Below are positions 2,311 through 14,614 of a DNA stretch of 22,359 nucleotides, piece by piece. A model generated the notes under the pieces. The model saw only the letters and a list, made by a program, of their open reading frames with translations. It had not been told where the DNA came from and searched no databases. This DNA comes from a phage. The translations under genes and the position numbers were made by a program. The stretch is taken from assembly GCA_026686805.1 (NCBI GenBank), contig GCA_026686805.1_3949.2, one strand, 5' to 3'. How positions within the stretch are numbered: position 1 is the stretch's first letter; each line of letters begins with the position of its first letter.

Positions 2311-3420
2311 TTAGATTTCACGTTTACGTTGAGAGATGAGTTCACCAGCAGTGCCAACGATGACATGCAAAGCTTCAGTCTTACCGTCCCATGCTTTCAG
2401 CACTTTACGTTGATTATCAACGATTGCTGCAACTTCATAACGAGAGGAACGCATCTTCATATCGTTGTAATCAGTTGGAACAGATACAACATCTCGTGGA
2501 TGGACACGAACCTTCAGGATTGTATCACCTGAGAAGCAACGAACATAATCCCAAGCACCAACATGAAGACCTTGAGAGCAAGTTACGTTACGGTTATTAT
2601 CAACCATCCAACGTGGCATTTCTACAATGTTACCCAAATCATTAGGCACTTTGTAGGTGTGAGAGTCAACCAGCTTGCCTTCACGAGTAGATACTTTCTT
2701 CCAACCAATGATGTAGCCTTCTTCATCAATTTCAACATCAAGGTGAGATACAAAGCCCCAAAGTTGTTCTACAGAGTCTTTAGATGGGTTTTCCATCAGT
2801 TTTTCGAAGAACATCACAAGGCGTTCAAAACCTTTATCTCCAGTCTTCATCATGTGAAGAATACGGTCAACCAGAGTAGAACGCATCTCAACAGCACCGT
2901 AGAATAGCTTGTCACCTTTGATTGTGATAGCACCCTGAGTGAAGTTTTCGATAGACTTACGAATATTCATCAGTTCAAAGGCTTTCTTGAACTCACCTTT
3001 CACAACATGAACTACAATCTCTTGATAGTTCGGATGAGTAGACTCAACAATTTCAGATTCTGAACCGTAAGTCATAATTACAGAGTCACCAGTAATCATG
3101 TACTCAATTTTGTCATCTTTCTGCATAGCTTCATGCAGTTTATTTACTGGAGCTTTCTGTACAGCGTCTTTAACGACCTTTTCAACTTGTTTGCCAGATT
3201 TCTTTTTAAAAGTTTTAGCAACTTGTTTCAAAGTCTTCGTAGCTGGTGTAGAAGTCGCCTTCTTATTACCTTTTAAGGTTGCTTCATGACGCTCTACAGC
3301 ACGACCAACTGAACGGGTTGAAGTATTAAATTTCTGTGCAATAGCTGTTTTAGTCAGCTTACCCTCTTTAACCAGTTTGTAAATTTCTGCGTCAATCTGT
3401 GCTTTAGTTTTAGTAGTCAT
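2311..3420 (-). CDS. rIIB: rIIB protein (369 aa)
   Basis: ATG start confirmed. C-terminal half matches the T4 rIIB pattern as I recall it (...VRVHPRDVVSVPTDYNDMKMR..., ...VTCSQGLHV...). Lies directly downstream of the rIIA-like gene in the same orientation, as in T4. Confidence 0.85.
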   Translation of the reverse strand: MTTKTKAQIDAEIYKLVKEGKLTKTAIAQKFNTSTRSVGRAVERHEATLKGNKKATSTPATKTLKQVAKTFKKKSGKQVEKVVKDAVQKAPVNKLHEAMQKDDKIEYMITGDSVIMTYGSESEIVESTHPNYQEIVVHVVKGEFKKAFELMNIRKSIENFTQGAITIKGDKLFYGAVEMRSTLVDRILHMMKTGDKGFERLVMFFEKLMENPSKDSVEQLWGFVSHLDVEIDEEGYIIGWKKVSTREGKLVDSHTYKVPNDLGNIVEMPRWMVDNNRNVTCSQGLHVGAWDYVRCFSGDTILKVRVHPRDVVSVPTDYNDMKMRSSRYEVAAIVDNQRKVLKAWDGKTEALHVIVGTAGELISQRKREI

Positions 3421-3503: not shown

Positions 3504-5870
3504 TTAATCGTAAACTGTTGTACCTTCTGGAACACATTTTACATCAAAGCCTAAGAACTTACTCACTTCGATGGGTGACACTTTATTCCAATCTAAATGA
3601 GAAAGCAAGAAGTTTTCTTGTTTTCTTTTTGAAAGGTATTTTGTCACCTTAATGACCATACGGTCACCAGCTTTCTTAATTTTCTTGTAAAGCTTTGTAT
3701 CATTGTCAAGACAGTCTTTCAAAGTTTTCAATACACTAATAGTATAAGTGTATGCAAATGGTGCAGCAACGTATTGGATTTTACCGAACATAGCCTCTAC
3801 AGCCTCTTCATTACCTTCTAGGAAGATAGTTTTGCTAGTATCTCGTGAATAGCAATAGCCACGAGAAATCTTCCTGTTATTGAACGTAAAGTTTCTGGCA
3901 ATAATCCAACTGCTTGTAAGGTCGAGGACACCATTCATATAGATACGTGTCATATATCTGTTATGATTAATCCAATGAACATCAGTTAAGCTGTCGTTCA
4001 AGAGTTTCTCATCTACTTCAATCCAGTCTTCTGGTATCTTTTTCCAATTTGCTTTTCGGAAAACATAGACTGTCTTCCCTATAACATTAGCAACTGACTT
4101 GGCTACATCTTCTGGAGATGAGCAAAAACATTCACCATCAACTGTGTCACCAACTGCCTTAATGTAAAGCTGAGGTTCTTCAATTGTATCAAAGTCCTCT
4201 GAAACCTCTTTATAGGAAGCTACACCTTCTGCTGGAACAGCTTTCCAGAGTTTTACAACACCTCTTACAGCTTCTTTACGCTGATAGTGATGTTCCTTAT
4301 CAGACATCTTAACAATCTTTAACAAGCTTTTATCAAGTTTGTGTAGATTGATTAAATCATCTAACTCTTTTTCAGTCGAGAATACAAACACAATACCATT
4401 ATATCTGTGAAACAGACTTGACTCACTGGCGTAGTCTCGACATGCACCACGCAGAATCTGATTGCGGCCTACAGTCTTCTCAGTACCATTTTTATTGCGA
4501 CGGTCATTAATCACGAACAAAAACTGTTCAATTTGGCTTTTACGCATTGCGCCAAAGATATTGAACATACTTGCCTCTTGAGTGTAGGAAAGTGCTGTTG
4601 CACGAATCTTACTCTCTAAAGAGTTGAACTTGACATAAGCAACTGGGTTATAAAGATAATCTACTTTAGGGATATTGTTCCCGTTCCTATCAACCTTAAT
4701 ATTGCCTTTACCGTCACGTTCATAAATGACTGAGCCGTCTTCTGCGTAGATAATTCCACGACGAATGTTTAACAATTCTTCTTCCAGAGAATCAAGCTTA
4801 ACGCCTCCCCACTCTAGCTTTGGACACACAGCATTAAACATCTCTCGTGAGTTCAAACGTAGCTCAGCATAAGCCTGTGCAGCATCCATGAGTGTAGGTT
4901 GACTATTAACTTTCTTGATAACATCCTTTGTAATTGCTTCAGTTATCTTTTTGGTAGCCTCGATGATAACATTTTTTGTCGTGTCATTCATCTGCAATGC
5001 TTCACGAGAAGCTGCAATAGCAACTGAACCAATAGGCATGTAGATGTTTACAAGGTCTACGCTCCTACGGAAAAATTCTGGCAATACTTTGAAGAAGTCA
5101 TCACCAAGTAATGCTTCCATATTAACAGGGTAGGCAATGTTACCCATCACCACATTAAACTCTGTCCTGTTACCACTAGAACGCCAGCTTTGCTTATGAA
5201 TCATGGCATCATAAACACCTTCTTCACGGGCAATGACGTTCATATCTGCTAATACATCGTCGTACTCAATATTACTTTCTGGTTTTACAGTGAAGTATGA
5301 GTACACATTCCCAGCTTCTTCAAAGAACTTTGAGATACGGTGGTCAGCAACTGCCACACGTACAGCTAAACCATTAGGTTCTTTTGTTGGGTTAGTTGTC
5401 AGCTTAGTTACTTGAGGGATACCATTCTCAAGATAAACAGAGTACTTATTAACAACACCGTCAACATAGCTAGATACTGTGAATGACTGAGCAATTGCAA
5501 ATGGTGACTTTGAGCCGATACCCATTGCACCAATGTAGTCATTAGAGTCATTCTTCGTAGAAGCTCCATAGTTTAGGTACAAACTCATAACTTTATCATG
5601 AGTCAATCCAGTTCCAAAATCACGAACTTCAAAGTAAGGCTCAAAACGAGTAGGTAAATGCACATGGAACGGGATGTTCTCTTTTCCAGCTTCTTTCTGA
5701 GCATCTACTGCGTTACATGACAGTTCACGAATCACTGCCCTTTCTTTAAAGGTATACACACCAGAACTCAAAAGGCTGAACATCTCAGGTGTCATTGTAA
5801 TCTGTGCTTGAGACGTCTCTAAAGAAGTTGAACTCTTAATCACTTCTGCGTGGTCATTTACCATGCGCAT
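3504..5870 (-). CDS. rIIA: rIIA protein (788 aa) with N-terminal GHKL/Bergerat-fold ATPase-like N-box
   Basis: ATG start confirmed, with AGAGGAAAG Shine-Dalgarno. ELSCNAVDA near residue 50 fits the GHKL N-box (E-x-x-x-N-A-x-D-A). Size and position immediately upstream of rIIB fit rIIA. Confidence 0.8.
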   Translation of the reverse strand: MRMVNDHAEVIKSSTSLETSQAQITMTPEMFSLLSSGVYTFKERAVIRELSCNAVDAQKEAGKENIPFHVHLPTRFEPYFEVRDFGTGLTHDKVMSLYLNYGASTKNDSNDYIGAMGIGSKSPFAIAQSFTVSSYVDGVVNKYSVYLENGIPQVTKLTTNPTKEPNGLAVRVAVADHRISKFFEEAGNVYSYFTVKPESNIEYDDVLADMNVIAREEGVYDAMIHKQSWRSSGNRTEFNVVMGNIAYPVNMEALLGDDFFKVLPEFFRRSVDLVNIYMPIGSVAIAASREALQMNDTTKNVIIEATKKITEAITKDVIKKVNSQPTLMDAAQAYAELRLNSREMFNAVCPKLEWGGVKLDSLEEELLNIRRGIIYAEDGSVIYERDGKGNIKVDRNGNNIPKVDYLYNPVAYVKFNSLESKIRATALSYTQEASMFNIFGAMRKSQIEQFLFVINDRRNKNGTEKTVGRNQILRGACRDYASESSLFHRYNGIVFVFSTEKELDDLINLHKLDKSLLKIVKMSDKEHHYQRKEAVRGVVKLWKAVPAEGVASYKEVSEDFDTIEEPQLYIKAVGDTVDGECFCSSPEDVAKSVANVIGKTVYVFRKANWKKIPEDWIEVDEKLLNDSLTDVHWINHNRYMTRIYMNGVLDLTSSWIIARNFTFNNRKISRGYCYSRDTSKTIFLEGNEEAVEAMFGKIQYVAAPFAYTYTISVLKTLKDCLDNDTKLYKKIKKAGDRMVIKVTKYLSKRKQENFLLSHLDWNKVSPIEVSKFLGFDVKCVPEGTTVYD

Positions 5871-5898: not shown

Positions 5899-6075
5899 TT
5901 ACTTATTAAACATTTTACCAGAACCACCACACATAGGGCAACAACCTGCTCTTGTATACCCTTCTCCGTTACAGTAGTCACACTTCTTGTGTTCTGCAAA
6001 GTACTTACAAAGAAGATAAACAAGGACTGCTACACTACCAAGTGACAGTAAAATTTCTACCCAATATGCTTGCAT
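5899..6075 (-). CDS. Small membrane protein with C-terminal DnaJ-type zinc-finger repeats (58 aa); not in ORF track
   Basis: Hand-translated: MQAYWVEILLSLGSVAVLVYLLCKYFAEHKKCDYCNGEGYTRAGCCPMCGGSGKMFNK. One hydrophobic helix, then two CxxCxGxG units (CDYCNGEG, CPMCGGSG). GAGGTGAG Shine-Dalgarno 4-11 nt upstream of the ATG. Overlaps the 3' end of the 6057..6392 ORF by 19 nt in another frame. Confidence 0.45.
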   Translation of the reverse strand: MQAYWVEILLSLGSVAVLVYLLCKYFAEHKKCDYCNGEGYTRAGCCPMCGGSGKMFNK

Positions 6076-6392
6076 GACTCACCTCTCATGTTTTTGTAAA
6101 GGATAAAGCTTCTGTCATGGACGATACTTGTAGATACTGCAAAGTTACTTTCAAGCATCTGTTTGTTTGGATTGTAGAAGCTTTCTTTAAACTCGTCAAG
6201 CGCAAATTGGTGATTGTCTGGAAGACCTTTTACACAAACCTTTATTGTGATTGCTGCTGCAATCTTGCCAGTCAGTTCTTCTTTAGCTGCTACTAAAATT
6301 TTGTTAAGGAACTTTTTACCATCTTCAGGTTTCTTAATGTTCTCCCAACGCTCTTCTAAGACAATGTTGATGTTCATCTCTTTGATTTTCAT
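6057..6392 (-). CDS. Hypothetical protein (111 aa)
   Basis: ATG start confirmed. First gene after the 6404..6431 terminator and candidate promoter. No recognisable motif. Confidence 0.5.
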   Translation of the reverse strand: MKIKEMNINIVLEERWENIKKPEDGKKFLNKILVAAKEELTGKIAAAITIKVCVKGLPDNHQFALDEFKESFYNPNKQMLESNFAVSTSIVHDRSFILYKNMRGESCKHIG

Positions 6393-6403
6393 AATCTTCT
6401 CCA

Positions 6404-6431
6404 GAAATTAAAAAGGCTCCCGTAGGAGCCT
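6404..6431 (-). terminator. Intrinsic terminator hairpin (minus RNA AGGCUCC-UACG-GGAGCCU followed by UUUUUAAUUUC)
   Basis: Plus 6414-6431 is aggctcc-cgta-ggagcct, the same stem as the 483-500 hairpin with a different tetraloop. U-tract follows on the minus transcript. Immediately downstream of the NAMPT-like gene. Confidence 0.6.
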
Positions 6432-6434
6432 CTT

Positions 6435-6462
6435 ATCATATACTTTTAAAGCTGCTTGTCAA
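6435..6462 (-). promoter_or_regulatory. Candidate sigma70-like promoter (TTGACA-N16-TATGAT) overlapping the 3' end of the NAMPT-like gene
   Basis: Minus strand: aatatTGACAagcagctttaaaagtaTATGATaagaggctcc; -35 at 6462..6457, -10 at 6440..6435. The transcript would begin inside the terminator hairpin. Confidence 0.3.
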
Positions 6463-8227
6463 TATTATTTCGAATATCGCCAAGAGTTGTGTAGCCGAAC
6501 TGCTCAGAGTCGCTAAAGACTAAACGTAAAGCACAAGCTGGATGCTCAAGTGCATCTGCAAAACTCTGGAATCCATAGCCATCTACAGCTTTCAGATTCT
6601 CACCATCCCACATAGGGGCTACACCACCAAAAGCAGACTTCTTAACACCACTATCTGTTTTAGGGTCTTTTGCAAGCATAATCTCTTTACCACCAATGCT
6701 TGCAAGAGTTGCTTTGACAGCAAATGCAAAGGTGTCACGAGTCATGTACTGGTAAGTGTAGGAACCTACACCAAACACTACGTTAGAGCTTGCAAAACCC
6801 ATTTCATACAAACGCTTAAGGATTTCGTTTGCACGTTCCAACGTGATAGAGTCACCATAGATAAGGCCAATGTGCTCATCCAGTACCTTAAAACCTTTAG
6901 AGTTGATAGTCCCTCCAAAGATGTTGTACAGTGTCTTAATAGCTCCATCAATCTCAGCTACAGGGCGTGTTACAACGTTTGCAGAACCAACCATATAAGC
7001 GTTCTTCAACATCACTGTATCAGCAACTTCAAAGTCTTCTCTGTCAACAACCATTTCATAGCCTTCTGACAGTAGCCATCCAGCAATACCATAGTTGATG
7101 TTTTCAAGCTTCATGTTCAGAACAGCATTCAACATTGTGTCGCTGGCTTCCAGCTTGCTAAGGTGCTCATAATAAGCCTTTTTAGCACACTCTAAGTGGA
7201 TTGCTTTATAACCTGTGACAATATGTACAGGGTCTCCAGAGTCAGGACGAATTACCAGTTTACCGTCACGTTCCATAATCTCTTTGCGAAGTGCTGGTAA
7301 GATTTCTGACACAGTTCTCCAGAAGTTATAAGTGTCTGAAACAACACTTGCAATACCAGTTGGGTAAGTTTCTGTTAAGAAACGACGGAAGGTTTGTAAC
7401 TCACCTTTAAAGCGTCTTTCTTCTTCAATCAACTCATTACCACCTTCCCAAGCAATGTTTGCACACATTACAGAGTGCTCAGTGGCTGGTACAGAACTAC
7501 CAATATCAGAAATTGGGTAAGACTGTCCATAGATGCGTTTAGCCGTGTATACAGCAGGGAAACTATCAGTTCCTTTAAAGCTGGTTAAGTGACCTACAGC
7601 ATTAAATGCGTCATCGGTAAAGCCGGACATACCACGCATAGCAAAGTCATGGCACTGATAAGGTAAATGTAAGTCATTGTCGCAAGTAAGGTCAGCCCAC
7701 TTCTTACAGATACGTTTGTAGTGCAATGCAATAGTTGCAATGGTACAAGCCTTCCAAATCTCAGCAGAGAAAGCATCTTCCAGATACCCCGCTACCCAAT
7801 GGAAACCTGAAACAGTGTTCTGGAAGACAATTATTGGTACACGCATAGGAACAACTGTGCCTTCTTCTACAGCGTATACTTCAACTGGCAGATAACCTAA
7901 GTCGTGAAGTGCTTCCCAATGCTCTCGACCAATAGCATCTTTACCCAGAACACCGTTCATGACTTCTAATATTTCGTCAATTGCTTCTTTTTTGTCACGT
8001 TCAAAGAAGGTGGCGTTCCAGTGGTCTATCAGGTAATCTTTAACAAAACGTTGAATACCAAAAGCAACTACACCATCAATTGCTAAGGGGCTGTTAAACC
8101 ATTTGTCACTACGTGGTGTCAGGTTGAACATCAAGTACTCTGTTGCGCTAGGATACTGGTAGATGTGACCAGATTTGTAAGCATCTGCGTTTAAACCTGC
8201 TGGTACTGCATAAAGTGATTTAGTCAT
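6446..8227 (-). CDS. Nicotinamide phosphoribosyltransferase-family protein (NAMPT-like; candidate NARP1 Namat), 593 aa
   Basis: ATG start confirmed. N-terminal ...NADAYKSGHIYQYPSATEY...FNLTPR tracks the NAMPT N-terminal signature as I recall it from human NAMPT ([27 protein letters not shown]). Same orientation as, and 45 nt downstream of, the PRPP-synthetase-like gene. Confidence 0.8.
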   Translation of the reverse strand: MTKSLYAVPAGLNADAYKSGHIYQYPSATEYLMFNLTPRSDKWFNSPLAIDGVVAFGIQRFVKDYLIDHWNATFFERDKKEAIDEILEVMNGVLGKDAIGREHWEALHDLGYLPVEVYAVEEGTVVPMRVPIIVFQNTVSGFHWVAGYLEDAFSAEIWKACTIATIALHYKRICKKWADLTCDNDLHLPYQCHDFAMRGMSGFTDDAFNAVGHLTSFKGTDSFPAVYTAKRIYGQSYPISDIGSSVPATEHSVMCANIAWEGGNELIEEERRFKGELQTFRRFLTETYPTGIASVVSDTYNFWRTVSEILPALRKEIMERDGKLVIRPDSGDPVHIVTGYKAIHLECAKKAYYEHLSKLEASDTMLNAVLNMKLENINYGIAGWLLSEGYEMVVDREDFEVADTVMLKNAYMVGSANVVTRPVAEIDGAIKTLYNIFGGTINSKGFKVLDEHIGLIYGDSITLERANEILKRLYEMGFASSNVVFGVGSYTYQYMTRDTFAFAVKATLASIGGKEIMLAKDPKTDSGVKKSAFGGVAPMWDGENLKAVDGYGFQSFADALEHPACALRLVFSDSEQFGYTTLGDIRNNIDKQL

Positions 8228-8247
8228 CTTTTAATCTCTCTCAAAAT

Positions 8248-8263
8248 GGGGCTTTTAAGCCCC
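8248..8263 (-). other. GC-rich hairpin GGGGC-UUAAAA-GCCCC between the PRPS-like and NAMPT-like genes; no clean U-tract
   Basis: Perfect 5-bp inverted repeat ggggc/gcccc with a 6-nt loop. Downstream minus RNA is AUUUUGAGAGAG (the Shine-Dalgarno of the NAMPT-like gene). Same design as the rIIA/rIIB hairpin. Confidence 0.45.
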
Positions 8264-8272
8264 TATAAACTT

Positions 8273-11979: not shown

Positions 11980-14124
11980 TTACATAGAGACTCTATCACG
12001 AATCTCAGCGATTTTTGCATCGTTCATTCGGGATTCACCTTTAATCTTAGTCCATCCAAGATACCCACACACCCTGTTAATCACAGAGATATCATGTGAA
12101 TGGCAAACCTCGCATTCTTCAACATCAGCCTTTGGTCTGTTACCACAATGTTCACAGATTGCTAAGTCAAAGTTAAGCCCCTGATAGAAACCTTTCAACA
12201 TCCCTCTTGTGATACAACTTTTAAGTGCTGTTAAGTTTTCTGGGTTAGCTACCCTGACATACTGGATTCTCCCACCTCTACAGATATGGAAGAATGGCTC
12301 TTCTAAGTCCTGCTTCTCAAATGGTGAGATGTCTGCTGCAACATTCATATGGAAACTGTTTGTAAAGTATTCCTTATCAGAAACACCTTTGATAACGCCA
12401 AACATATCTCTGAACTGTTTTAGCTGAGTTCCGCAAAGTGATTCTGCTGGAGTACCATAGACGGCATATAAGAAGCCATCTTCATTTTTAAACTCTTCAG
12501 TTTTCATGTTGATGTATGCCAGAACATCGTATGCAAAACTACAGCTTCCAACTTCATGAAGTCGTTTACCTTCAGCAAGAACAGATAGCTCATCAAGCGC
12601 AGTAACCCCAAAAGAAGCTGTGAAGGACTTCACAATATCCCAACCAACCTTGTCAGTAGGTTTCTTAGTTCCTTTGTACAGACCACCTTGTGTGAATGCA
12701 AGAGGGTTAGAACTTGCTGGCATATTAGCAATCATTTCGTAGCGTTTCTTGTGGAAGCTGCGAATCATCTCTAGGTACTTATCAAGCTCTTTCCAGAAAT
12801 CTAAACCACTCTCTCTAGAATACTGGTAAATCATCGGTAAGTTCAAAGATACAGCACCAATGTTAGCACGACCAACATAGAACTCTTCCCCATCCTCATT
12901 AAGATATGGAGATAAGAAGGCTCTGCAACCCATCGGTGAAATTACCTTGCCAGAACGCTCAAAAGCCTCTGCTACAGCACCATGACCAGATACACTTAAG
13001 AAGTCTGGATACATTGCTTTAGAGCAACACTCAATAGCTTTACTGTACAGGTGACCTTGACAGATATTTTCATCATGTCTCTTCTGGTCATAAATATAAA
13101 CCAGTTTAGGAAATACAACAGGCTTCTTGCTCTTACCTTGTCCATTCATACGAACATCTAGGAGAGTACTTGCAATCATGTATTGTAATCGGTTGTCTTC
13201 ATTAGACATGTCTGAGTCAAGTAACCCAAATGTTAAAGTTGTGAATGCAAAATCCCCACGACTACAAGGTACAGTGTTTAGTTTCATTTCAAGTGACTGG
13301 AAACCTTGAGTTAATTCAATCTGTAACTGCTCCATGACATAATTATGGTAATGTTCTTTAGGAATACCATAAGATGTTGCTTTCTCAGCATGATAGCGTA
13401 GAGACTTCTTAGCATACGGTACAAGTACCTTGTCAATCTCTGCTAAAGTAAAGCCACCAAATTGCTGTGCAGTTGCTGAAAGAACTACGTCACCAATAAC
13501 TTGTAAGGCCGACAGCACAGACTTCGGTTCACAATATTCGATGCCAGACATTTCAAAGCCACCTTTCAGTACTTTACCAATGTCAAACAGACAACAGTTA
13601 ATACCACCAAAAATTAGGTCTCTTAAGTCATGGATGTAGATAAACCCTTTTTCAATGGCTTCAAGTTCCTCTGGTGTTAAATGGTACTGTTTAAAGATTT
13701 CTTTAGTCAGATAACCACGAATAATTGAACCTTTTGTAGAAATTAAACTGCTGTCAAAGTTAGCATTCTCTCTGTCACCTAAGAAGAGTGTATCTTTGGT
13801 CTTCTGGTAAAGTTCATCCCAATTTTGAGCAACTTCTTTACGGTAATTTCTATATGTTGAGTAAGACTCATAAATCTCGTGATTGACTTCTGCCAAAGCA
13901 CCCTCAACAATACTGTGAATATCATTTACTGAAATGAGCAAATTATTCTGTTTAGTAGATTTTACCAGAATCCTCATAAATGCTGACTCAAGAGCTTGGG
14001 TAACATCTGGTGGGAGTTCTTTATAACCAACCCTATTAGCTGACTTTGTGACTGCTGCTAAAACTTTTTTGATATCAGGTTCTTCGAGTGAGCCATTCTT
14101 TTTAATAATCTGTACTTTGTTCAT
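11980..14124 (-). CDS. nrdD: Anaerobic ribonucleoside-triphosphate reductase, class III (714 aa)
   Basis: ATG start confirmed. C-terminal glycyl-radical motif RVCGYLG, preceded by a Cys cluster (CEHCGN ... CEVCHSH). Reading frame is contiguous, so no intron is evident. Confidence 0.9.
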   Translation of the reverse strand: MNKVQIIKKNGSLEEPDIKKVLAAVTKSANRVGYKELPPDVTQALESAFMRILVKSTKQNNLLISVNDIHSIVEGALAEVNHEIYESYSTYRNYRKEVAQNWDELYQKTKDTLFLGDRENANFDSSLISTKGSIIRGYLTKEIFKQYHLTPEELEAIEKGFIYIHDLRDLIFGGINCCLFDIGKVLKGGFEMSGIEYCEPKSVLSALQVIGDVVLSATAQQFGGFTLAEIDKVLVPYAKKSLRYHAEKATSYGIPKEHYHNYVMEQLQIELTQGFQSLEMKLNTVPCSRGDFAFTTLTFGLLDSDMSNEDNRLQYMIASTLLDVRMNGQGKSKKPVVFPKLVYIYDQKRHDENICQGHLYSKAIECCSKAMYPDFLSVSGHGAVAEAFERSGKVISPMGCRAFLSPYLNEDGEEFYVGRANIGAVSLNLPMIYQYSRESGLDFWKELDKYLEMIRSFHKKRYEMIANMPASSNPLAFTQGGLYKGTKKPTDKVGWDIVKSFTASFGVTALDELSVLAEGKRLHEVGSCSFAYDVLAYINMKTEEFKNEDGFLYAVYGTPAESLCGTQLKQFRDMFGVIKGVSDKEYFTNSFHMNVAADISPFEKQDLEEPFFHICRGGRIQYVRVANPENLTALKSCITRGMLKGFYQGLNFDLAICEHCGNRPKADVEECEVCHSHDISVINRVCGYLGWTKIKGESRMNDAKIAEIRDRVSM

Positions 14125-14172: not shown

Positions 14173-14379
14173 TTAAATCTTTTTAGAAAACTTCGCAAAG
14201 AGTTCTCTTAGTTTTTCAGTGATACCTAACTGTATCTCTAATATTTCGAAGATAACCCATAGTAACATGGCTCCAAACAATGAACCTTGTTCAAAGTCAG
14301 TAAATAGGTTAACAATCAGCATACCAATCACAATCGCTGGTGCATCAACAACCAAACCTTCCCAAATGCGTTTAAGCAT
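14173..14379 (-). CDS. Small hydrophobic membrane protein (68 aa)
   Basis: ATG start confirmed. Hydrophobic stretches VVDAPAIVIGMLIVNLF and FGAMLLWVIFEIL. 8-nt overlap with the redoxin gene upstream. Confidence 0.5.
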   Translation of the reverse strand: MLKRIWEGLVVDAPAIVIGMLIVNLFTDFEQGSLFGAMLLWVIFEILEIQLGITEKLRELFAKFSKKI

Positions 14380-14614
14380 TATTCACCTCTGCCATAAAAT
14401 TCTGTAGCGTCCCAACAGGTTTTAGGTTTTGTCCATCAGTTTTCATGATGAATGGCATCTGACGAACTGGCATCTGTGCAATATCCATCAGGTCTGATAG
14501 TTCATAATCCTGCCCTAACATTCTCACAACATGGTCAATACCACGAGCTTTTGCAAAATTCTTTGCAGTCTCACACTGAGGGCATCCAGTTTTGGAGTAA
14601 ATTACATAAGTCAT
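14372..14614 (-). CDS. Glutaredoxin-like small redoxin (NrdH/NrdC-type), 80 aa
   Basis: ATG start confirmed. Active-site CPQC near the N-terminus (YSKTGCPQCETAK). Size and position directly after nrdB (TAATG overlap) fit an RNR electron donor. Confidence 0.7.
   Translation of the reverse strand: MTYVIYSKTGCPQCETAKNFAKARGIDHVVRMLGQDYELSDLMDIAQMPVRQMPFIMKTDGQNLKPVGTLQNFMAEVNNA

Follow-up and report, generated by a model that had tools for sequence, protein, structure and literature searches.

The CxxCxGxG motif is the repeated element of the Cys-rich domain of DnaJ/Hsp40 proteins (PF00684; 1exk), which carries four repeats and two zinc centres and sits between the J domain/G-F region and the substrate-binding domains. 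In the DnaJ structure 1EXK, repeats that are adjacent in sequence do not share a zinc. Two motifs of this kind are found in Anti-TRAP (RtpA) of Bacillus (2bx9, 3lcz, 3ld0; PF15777), a soluble protein of ~53 amino acids (aa) with a single Cys4 knuckle, a CxxC-10-CxxC spacing and a C-terminal oligomerisation helix. Anti-TRAP acts purely by binding and blocking another protein (it is a TRAP inhibitor according to the titles of its PDB entries). A membrane-bound counterpart is Arabidopsis FIP (At5g02160), which consists of a membrane helix and, at its C-terminus, a C4 zinc finger that holds two CXXCXGXG repeats, binds the FtsH5 protease, and is oriented with its N-terminus in the lumen and its finger in the stroma (PMC5915565). 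Here, we describe a gene for a 58-residue, membrane-anchored zinc-ribbon protein at positions 5899..6075 (minus strand) of a 22,359-nucleotide (nt) stretch of phage DNA (contig GCA_026686805.1_3949.2), the whole of which is called the window. The window is from a Felixounavirus, shares 96–98% identity with E. coli O157 typing phages 1 and 15, LF82P3 and others, and carries all of its genes on the minus strand. The 58-aa protein shares the zinc-knuckle module of DnaJ and Anti-TRAP and belongs to neither family. At a probability of roughly 0.45, we read it as a membrane-tethered zinc-knuckle binding module that would serve the phage as a dispensable, early accessory protein.

The open reading frame (ORF), as read from the sequence, has 58 codons on the minus strand, from an ATG at 6075 to a TAA stop at 5899..5901, and its translation is MQAYWVEILLSLGSVAVLVYLLCKYFAEHKKCDYCNGEGYTRAGCCPMCGGSGKMFNK. 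The Shine-Dalgarno sequence GAGGTGAG lies at 6085..6078 (minus strand), 2 nt before the ATG and inside the coding sequence of an upstream 111-aa ORF (6057..6392), the last 19 nt of which are overlapped by the start of the 58-aa gene. At the other end, a gap of 28 nt separates the ORF from the rIIA ATG at 5870. An earlier interpretation made from the letters alone, without database searches (the sequence-only reading), had arrived at an identical ORF and translation, had called the Shine-Dalgarno sequence strong, and had pointed out the overlap with the 111-aa ORF end and the site upstream of rIIA, all of it correctly. Its description of the ORF as unannotated applies only to the ORF track from which it worked. 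Public records annotate the gene as FelixO1 ORF131 (NP_945023.1, "hypothetical membrane protein"), as FDI04_gp080 in typing phage 1, and as bas63_0083 ("putative membrane protein"), and the family is catalogued as PHROG 3931 (unknown function), which is matched at E = 4e-33 by residues 1–58 over profile positions 1–59 of 59. A similarity to RB49p046 is already stated in the phiEa21-4 record. By full-length match and syntenic orthologues, PHROG 3931, FelixO1 ORF131 (95% identical) and RB49p046 are the same family as the 58-aa protein, with no difference between them.

ORF length alone is not significant at this locus, since several antisense ORFs of 60–68 aa lie nearby. The idea of a chance, untranslated ORF draws on just these points, namely a short frame with spurious ORFs of similar length on the opposite strand, and its likelihood is negligible. 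The 58-aa ORF is intact, with start and stop conserved, in 33/33 related loci. Among 25 Felixounavirus loci (21 distinct nucleotide sequences), variable sites at codon positions 1/2/3 number 7/5/29, and dN/dS (the ratio of nonsynonymous to synonymous rates) is 0.076 in its own frame versus 1.84 and 0.99 in the shifted control frames. Eight Moogle/Suspvirus loci give the same picture, with 14/3/31 variable sites and a dN/dS of 0.094 against 0.96 and 2.14. When the whole window is translated in six frames, C..C.G.G turns up at two places, and both are in the 58-aa ORF; shuffled sequences averaged 0.023 single motifs, and not one of 300 shuffles contained the pair. Because dN/dS is low in its own frame alone and the frame is intact throughout, this is a real gene and the chance explanation is refuted; the invariant Cys and Gly residues, the shuffles and the strong Shine-Dalgarno sequence point the same way. 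Conservation of the frame and of the Cys positions in relatives was the check that the sequence-only reading had proposed: both are kept, and substitutions are mostly synonymous. Judged by these patterns of substitution, the ORF is almost certainly a genuine, strongly constrained phage gene across the Ounavirinae and Krischvirus.

Orthologues share 54% identity in Mooglevirus and 47% in Suspvirus, and others are found in Kolesnikvirus, in Pectobacterium phage Wc4-1 and, outside the subfamily, in Krischvirus (RB49/Phi1 ORF046). Throughout these lineages (Felixouna-, Moogle-, Susp- and Kolesnikvirus, Wc4-1 and Krischvirus), C32, C35, G37, C46, C49, G51 and G53 are invariant, at identities down to 30%, while C45, just before the second motif, is not conserved across lineages. 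Within the protein, it is the zinc scaffold that is conserved best, not the helix.

The N-terminal part of the protein is a hydrophobic helix at residues ~5–24 (Kyte-Doolittle mean 2.3 over 17 residues), with Y4/W5/E7 on one flank and K24/Y25/F26 on the other. The transmembrane segment is placed at residues 6–22 (6010..6060, minus strand) by hydrophobicity and by the helix of the AlphaFold2 (AF2) model, and Kyte-Doolittle values in a 17-residue window are 2.1–3.2 for the family members compared. The AF2 model (pLDDT, a per-residue confidence score, of 77) has a helix at 3–27 that is followed by beta-hairpins. The two CxxCxGxG motifs, C32-D-Y-C35-N-G37-E-G39 at 5959..5982 and C46-P-M-C49-G-G51-S-G53 at 5917..5940 (both minus strand), give residues 32–53 the layout CxxCxGxG-x6-CxxCxGxG. 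A family profile matches the Cys-rich domain of E. coli DnaJ (1exk, E = 2.6e-9; further 2ctt at 1.7e-6 and 6jzb at 5.3e-6) and Anti-TRAP (E = 0.007–0.017). The top Foldseek matches of the AF2 model in the PDB are the Anti-TRAP structures 3ld0, 3lcz and 2bx9, with a root-mean-square deviation of 1.0–2.0 Å over 23–29 residues and probabilities of 0.92–0.97. To B. licheniformis Anti-TRAP, the alignment is gap-free with identical Cys spacing, at ~34% identity over the module. Very probably, then, the protein combines a transmembrane helix with a single, predicted Cys4 zinc knuckle that is formed by the two motifs. Such a knuckle corresponds to one of the zinc centres in the Cys-rich domain of DnaJ and accounts for nearly all of Anti-TRAP. 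The sequence-only reading had seen a transmembrane helix fused to DnaJ-type CxxCxGxG motifs and had suggested structure prediction of the zinc module; hydrophobicity, the AF2 model, and the profile and fold matches, with Anti-TRAP best among the latter, bear this out.

Despite this shared module, the protein stays below the cut-offs of every established family that resembles it: PF00684 (17.1 bits, cut-off 32.7) and PF15777 (Anti-TRAP; 9.3 bits, cut-off 32) in Pfam, TIGR02349 (DnaJ; 17.3 bits, cut-off 377) in NCBIfam, NF058604 (RtpA; 11 bits, cut-off 65), and DUF5351 (PF17302; 18.6 bits, gathering threshold 27). Anti-TRAP differs in being soluble, as a trimer or dodecamer that binds TRAP, without a transmembrane helix, in having an oligomerisation helix that is absent from the phage protein, and in its organism and target; to our knowledge, enterobacteria have no TRAP. 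A role as a DnaJ-type co-chaperone or "heat shock protein" would agree with the motifs, shared with the Cys-rich domain of DnaJ, and with the names in some records, and is nonetheless scarcely credible. There is no J domain (HPD), G/F region or C-terminal substrate-binding domain, the cut-offs of PF00684 and TIGR02349 are not reached, and two repeats with one predicted zinc centre and a membrane anchor take the place of four repeats with two centres, which effectively refutes it. In GenBank records among Mushroom, EcoM2, Rouille/Tian, SP22 and GEC_vB_BS, the orthologue is labelled "heat shock protein" or "chaperone protein DnaJ", and a "baseplate distal hub" label stands under the match in two GenBank records. 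For a protein of 54–58 aa without a J domain, these labels are over- or mis-annotations. Since the protein lacks a J domain and has only two repeats, it is neither a DnaJ nor a heat shock protein, and "membrane-anchored DnaJ/Anti-TRAP-type zinc-ribbon protein" would be a cleaner annotation than "heat shock protein/DnaJ".

The product can be predicted, with good support, to be a bitopic inner-membrane protein. All 12 family members compared (12/12) lack Lys or Arg (K/R) before the transmembrane segment and have 1–4 K/R in the 15 residues after it, and no member has a positively charged n-region of the Sec-signal type. By the positive-inside rule, positive charges lie on the cytoplasmic side of a membrane helix. 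Because of this bias, we expect the short acidic or neutral N-terminus to be periplasmic and the zinc knuckle to be probably cytoplasmic, against the inner face of the membrane. FIP shows the same arrangement in the plastid, where the stroma is the equivalent of the cytoplasm: its mature architecture is identical to that of the phage protein, again without a J domain, in an architectural analogy that was drawn by description only. It differs in being eukaryotic and plastid-targeted, with a transit peptide. Its homologues have been reported from mosses and higher plants only (PMC5915565). LQY1, CYO1/SCO2 and OR are further plant membrane proteins that have a DnaJ-like zinc finger and no J domain.

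Orientation also bears on the possibility that the CxxC motifs are redox-active, making the protein a thiol-disulfide oxidoreductase or redox sensor, instead of a structural zinc site, with a domain that may face the periplasm. Such a role has been reported for DnaJ Zn2 and for CYO1 and LQY1, plant proteins with a DnaJ-like zinc finger. Work on the DnaJ Zn2 oxidoreductase and the CYO1 disulfide isomerase, which provides in-vitro precedents, is cited in PMC5915565. Cys45 and Cys23, two additional cysteines with partial conservation, could join in thiol exchange, the charge bias is ambiguous in some members, and in two diverged lineages of Krischvirus-like phages the end of an NrdH/glutaredoxin gene runs into the homologous gene. 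Most members, however, have a clear C-terminal K/R excess, and n-regions like those of signal peptides are absent throughout; the Gly residues that never vary are arranged in the way that shapes a zinc knuckle; and no redox neighbour accompanies the gene in the Ounavirinae, where the ORF that follows the glutaredoxin gene is Cys-free and unrelated. We therefore regard a redox function as quite unlikely.

An exhaustive HMMER search over 1.84 billion representatives returned 1,920 hits, which included a few extra small full-length members (P0029, P0030, P0038, P0072, P0125, P0153), the rest being multi-repeat CxxCxGxG proteins and canonical DnaJs. The largest cluster of the family has 262 member sequences. 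No full-length cellular or prophage homologue appeared in a scan of genome contigs that could reach close relatives only, where motif-level matches to residues ~25–58 came from unrelated metagenome-assembled genomes. Matches in Synechococcus S-RIM2, Pbunavirus, Lak-phage and Q-antiterminators were rejected, as they are confined to the motif and lie inside larger unrelated proteins. The search also brought up a large uncharacterised bacterial/metagenomic class in which a signal peptide, lipobox or anchor is followed by 2 to >10 paired CxxCxGxG repeats (P0035, P0042, P0050, P0137, P0091, P0049, P0147). The K-rich n-regions of this class would place its Cys-rich repeats outside the cytoplasm, opposite to the orientation predicted for the phage proteins.

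The sequence-only reading had called the architecture unusual. Among characterised proteins it is indeed uncommon; as a general statement this goes too far, since Arabidopsis FIP has the same layout (PMC5915565) and many small uncharacterised phage proteins in the BFVD database have the same zinc knuckle. Already known, then, are the gene and its family (catalogued as hypothetical), the zinc-knuckle fold, and the plant precedent for a transmembrane helix with two repeats. What is new is the recognition of a phage-restricted, membrane-anchored, single-centre variant of the zinc knuckle, with a predicted topology, inside a counter-defence island.

That island has been mapped in Bas63, a Felixounavirus, for which PhageMaP essentiality data have been published (PMC11482910). 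In the account given there, a segment of ~46–66 kb is non-essential throughout on the four E. coli hosts used; Sir2-HerA is countered by g79/g80 (Prs and NAMPT), and QatABCD by g84/g85 (rIIA/B), which are co-essential against it (PMC11482910). The orthologue of the 58-aa gene, bas63_0083 (g83), lies at 56,175–56,351, within this segment and between g79/g80 and g84/g85, i.e. between two validated counter-defence modules. The gene context is thus compatible with a host-takeover or anti-defence role, as the sequence-only reading had supposed for small phage proteins of this type. Natural frameshift alleles exist as well: four independent ones keep the transmembrane helix and swap the zinc module for an out-of-frame tail (P0003, P0005, P0006, P0015). 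In phiWec177 (L058 401-592), this is a 1-nt deletion in codon 38, and the three others are at different positions; these alleles may be natural or laboratory losses of function, or sequencing errors.

On this basis, we propose the following course of events. The 58-aa gene would belong to the early genes and be co-expressed with rIIA and the 111-aa gene. An Anti-TRAP-like zinc knuckle would then be tethered at the cytoplasmic face of the inner membrane, where it may act as a protein–protein interaction module and bind a host or defence protein at the membrane surface, thereby sequestering, inhibiting or recruiting it. The benefit would be conditional, lying in host takeover or counter-defence, and the function dispensable. 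The accessory, conditional part of this proposal follows from the place of the orthologue in a non-essential Bas63 segment flanked by counter-defence genes and from the natural frameshift alleles, and the binding-module part from the precedents of Anti-TRAP (TRAP inhibition) and FIP (FtsH5 binding). A narrower version can be imagined, in which the protein is an inhibitor or adaptor that docks on an inner-membrane-associated target, be it a host factor (e.g. FtsH) or a defence effector that acts at the membrane. As a counterpart of FIP or Anti-TRAP in a prokaryotic virus, it would then add a third, hitherto unrecognised member to the counter-defence island, with the NadV/Prs NAD-salvage genes on one side and rIIA/rIIB on the other; so specific a role is doubtful.

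Several observations weigh against the proposal of a membrane-tethered binding module. The Foldseek matches to Anti-TRAP have E-values of 0.17–0.43, which are not significant alone, the module being very small. Between the Cys/Gly scaffold positions, residues vary between genera, which argues against one universal binding surface or partner. The K/R bias is weak in Moogle/Suspvirus and in Wc4-1 (where the transmembrane segment is followed by a single K/R and by several acidic residues), and in those members the zinc knuckle may be periplasmic. Our literature search found no paper or experiment on the 58-aa protein or any homologue, and the main text of the PhageMaP article does not name g83 among its counter-defence hits (PMC11482910). 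As for known defence or anti-defence families, these were rejected for the 58-aa protein, with 0 PADLOC families matched at E <= 10.

The gene directly downstream is rIIA (788 aa; 3504..5870, minus strand), which is followed by rIIB (2311..3420, minus strand). RIIA of the window is 32% identical to T4 RIIA (E = 6e-37; against L048 12-2189) over the N-terminal ~300 residues only, while >80% homology to T4 RIIA/B is given for Bas63 g84/g85 in PMC11482910. The name rIIB is taken from the annotation of relatives, as the product has no Pfam match at E <= 0.001; the L047 orthologue carries PF26926. Upstream, the 111-aa gene (6057..6392, minus strand; PHROG 4262, unknown function) is preceded by nadV (nicotinamide phosphoribosyltransferase; 6446..8227, minus strand), the conserved upstream boundary of the block. 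Just after nadV lies a terminator-like hairpin (6434..6411, minus strand), which abuts a sigma-70-like promoter, TTGACA-16-TATGAT (6462..6435, minus strand; 11 of 12 to consensus), both of them consensus matches only. A transcript from this promoter would start within the 5' arm of the hairpin, and a terminator is annotated at the equivalent place in the phiEa21-4 record. A scan for sites found nothing terminator-like on the way from the 111-aa gene via the 58-aa gene to rIIA, and a 111aa-58aa-rIIA transcription unit may begin at the promoter. The 19-nt overlap of the first two genes suggests translational coupling; the same overlap is present in Mooglevirus, Suspvirus and FelixO1. In the window, the nucleotides that encode the disordered tail of the 111-aa protein (residues 103–111) double as the Shine-Dalgarno sequence and opening codons of the 58-aa gene. 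The 111-aa gene itself has 59% identity in Mooglevirus and no clear homologue in Kolesnikvirus. Its AF2 model (pLDDT 67) has a weak, non-significant resemblance to the fold of the IF3 C-terminal domain (E >= 0.13), from which no functional inference is drawn.

In every Ounavirinae lineage checked, the order is nadV, variable genes, the zinc-finger gene and rIIA, with the zinc-finger gene directly upstream of rIIA at a distance of 21–75 nt (Felixouna-, Moogle-, Susp- and Kolesnikvirus, Wc4-1). This order extends to metagenomic relatives in which RIIA is only 37% identical and the intervening content differs. The interval between nadV and rIIA (in the window, 6393..6445) is an indel hotspot from which the zinc-finger gene is never lost. 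Its variants in relatives (compared in L002 834-1178, L004 1972-2187, L010 2170-2960, L006 and L045 884-1378) include an extra ~115-aa gene (bas63_0081), an extra 72-aa gene, a ProQ-annotated gene, an HNH endonuclease, and the lack of the 111-aa gene.

Such linkage raises the question of whether the protein is an accessory of RIIA/RIIB, which would anchor or regulate them at the inner membrane and help to counter membrane-depolarising abortive infection (RexAB-like, QatABCD). The adjacency in all five lineages, its persistence beside a diverged RIIA while other interval genes vary, and the lack of a terminator-like site before rIIA all speak for such a link, as does the validation of Bas63 rIIA/rIIB as QatABCD counters (PMC11482910). 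Adjacency to rIIA is weak evidence for function, however, because Ounavirinae genomes are highly syntenic overall. Krischvirus has rII genes, yet its homologue sits by nrdH; T4 and other Tevenvirinae have functional rIIA/B, and no homologue of the 58-aa protein was found in them; and where the PhageMaP article treats QatABCD, it names g84 and g85, not g83 (PMC11482910). Taken together, we think an RIIA/RIIB accessory unlikely. That the gene has two distinct conserved neighbourhoods, at rIIA and at nrdH, speaks instead for autonomous action, not for an obligate subunit of either neighbour. A general rule of a small zinc or membrane protein upstream of rIIA was likewise rejected, given that T4 rIIA.1 is soluble, Cys-free and unrelated and that the Krischvirus homologue adjoins nrdH.

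A small single-pass membrane protein beside genes historically named "lysis inhibitors", with spanin genes ~5 kb away, could also be a lysis-timing or superinfection-exclusion effector of the holin, antiholin, Imm or Sp type, with an active helix and the zinc knuckle as a regulatory tail. In T4, rII contributes to lysis inhibition indirectly. The gene lies outside the lysis cassette with no adjacent holin or endolysin, searches of Pfam, PHROGs and NCBIfam gave no similarity to known holins, antiholins or Imm, and conservation is strongest in the zinc scaffold, not in the helix, which makes a lysis or exclusion effector very unlikely.

Other parts of the window vary among relatives as well. At 14173..14379 (minus strand), a 68-aa ORF whose product has two hydrophobic segments shares 8 nt with the end of the glutaredoxin gene (14372..14614) and holds the place that the zinc-finger gene has in Krischvirus; as a Cys-free, two-transmembrane, unrelated product, it was rejected as a Felixounavirus paralogue of the 58-aa protein. 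Between prs and nadV, FelixO1 has an HNH endonuclease gene (L001 339-830), where the window has a 45-nt gap (8228..8272). In Bas63, nrdD is split, with a homing endonuclease, while the nrdD of the window (11980..14124) is a single 714-aa ORF.

Its site between two validated counter-defence modules makes the 58-aa gene a cheap candidate to test. If a partner were found, the protein would be among the smallest defined phage effectors, with just two parts, a membrane anchor and a 22-residue zinc knuckle. It would also provide a function for a family that is present in essentially all Ounavirinae and in RB49-like phages, the Ounavirinae including phages for the typing, biocontrol and therapy of Salmonella and E. 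coli O157.

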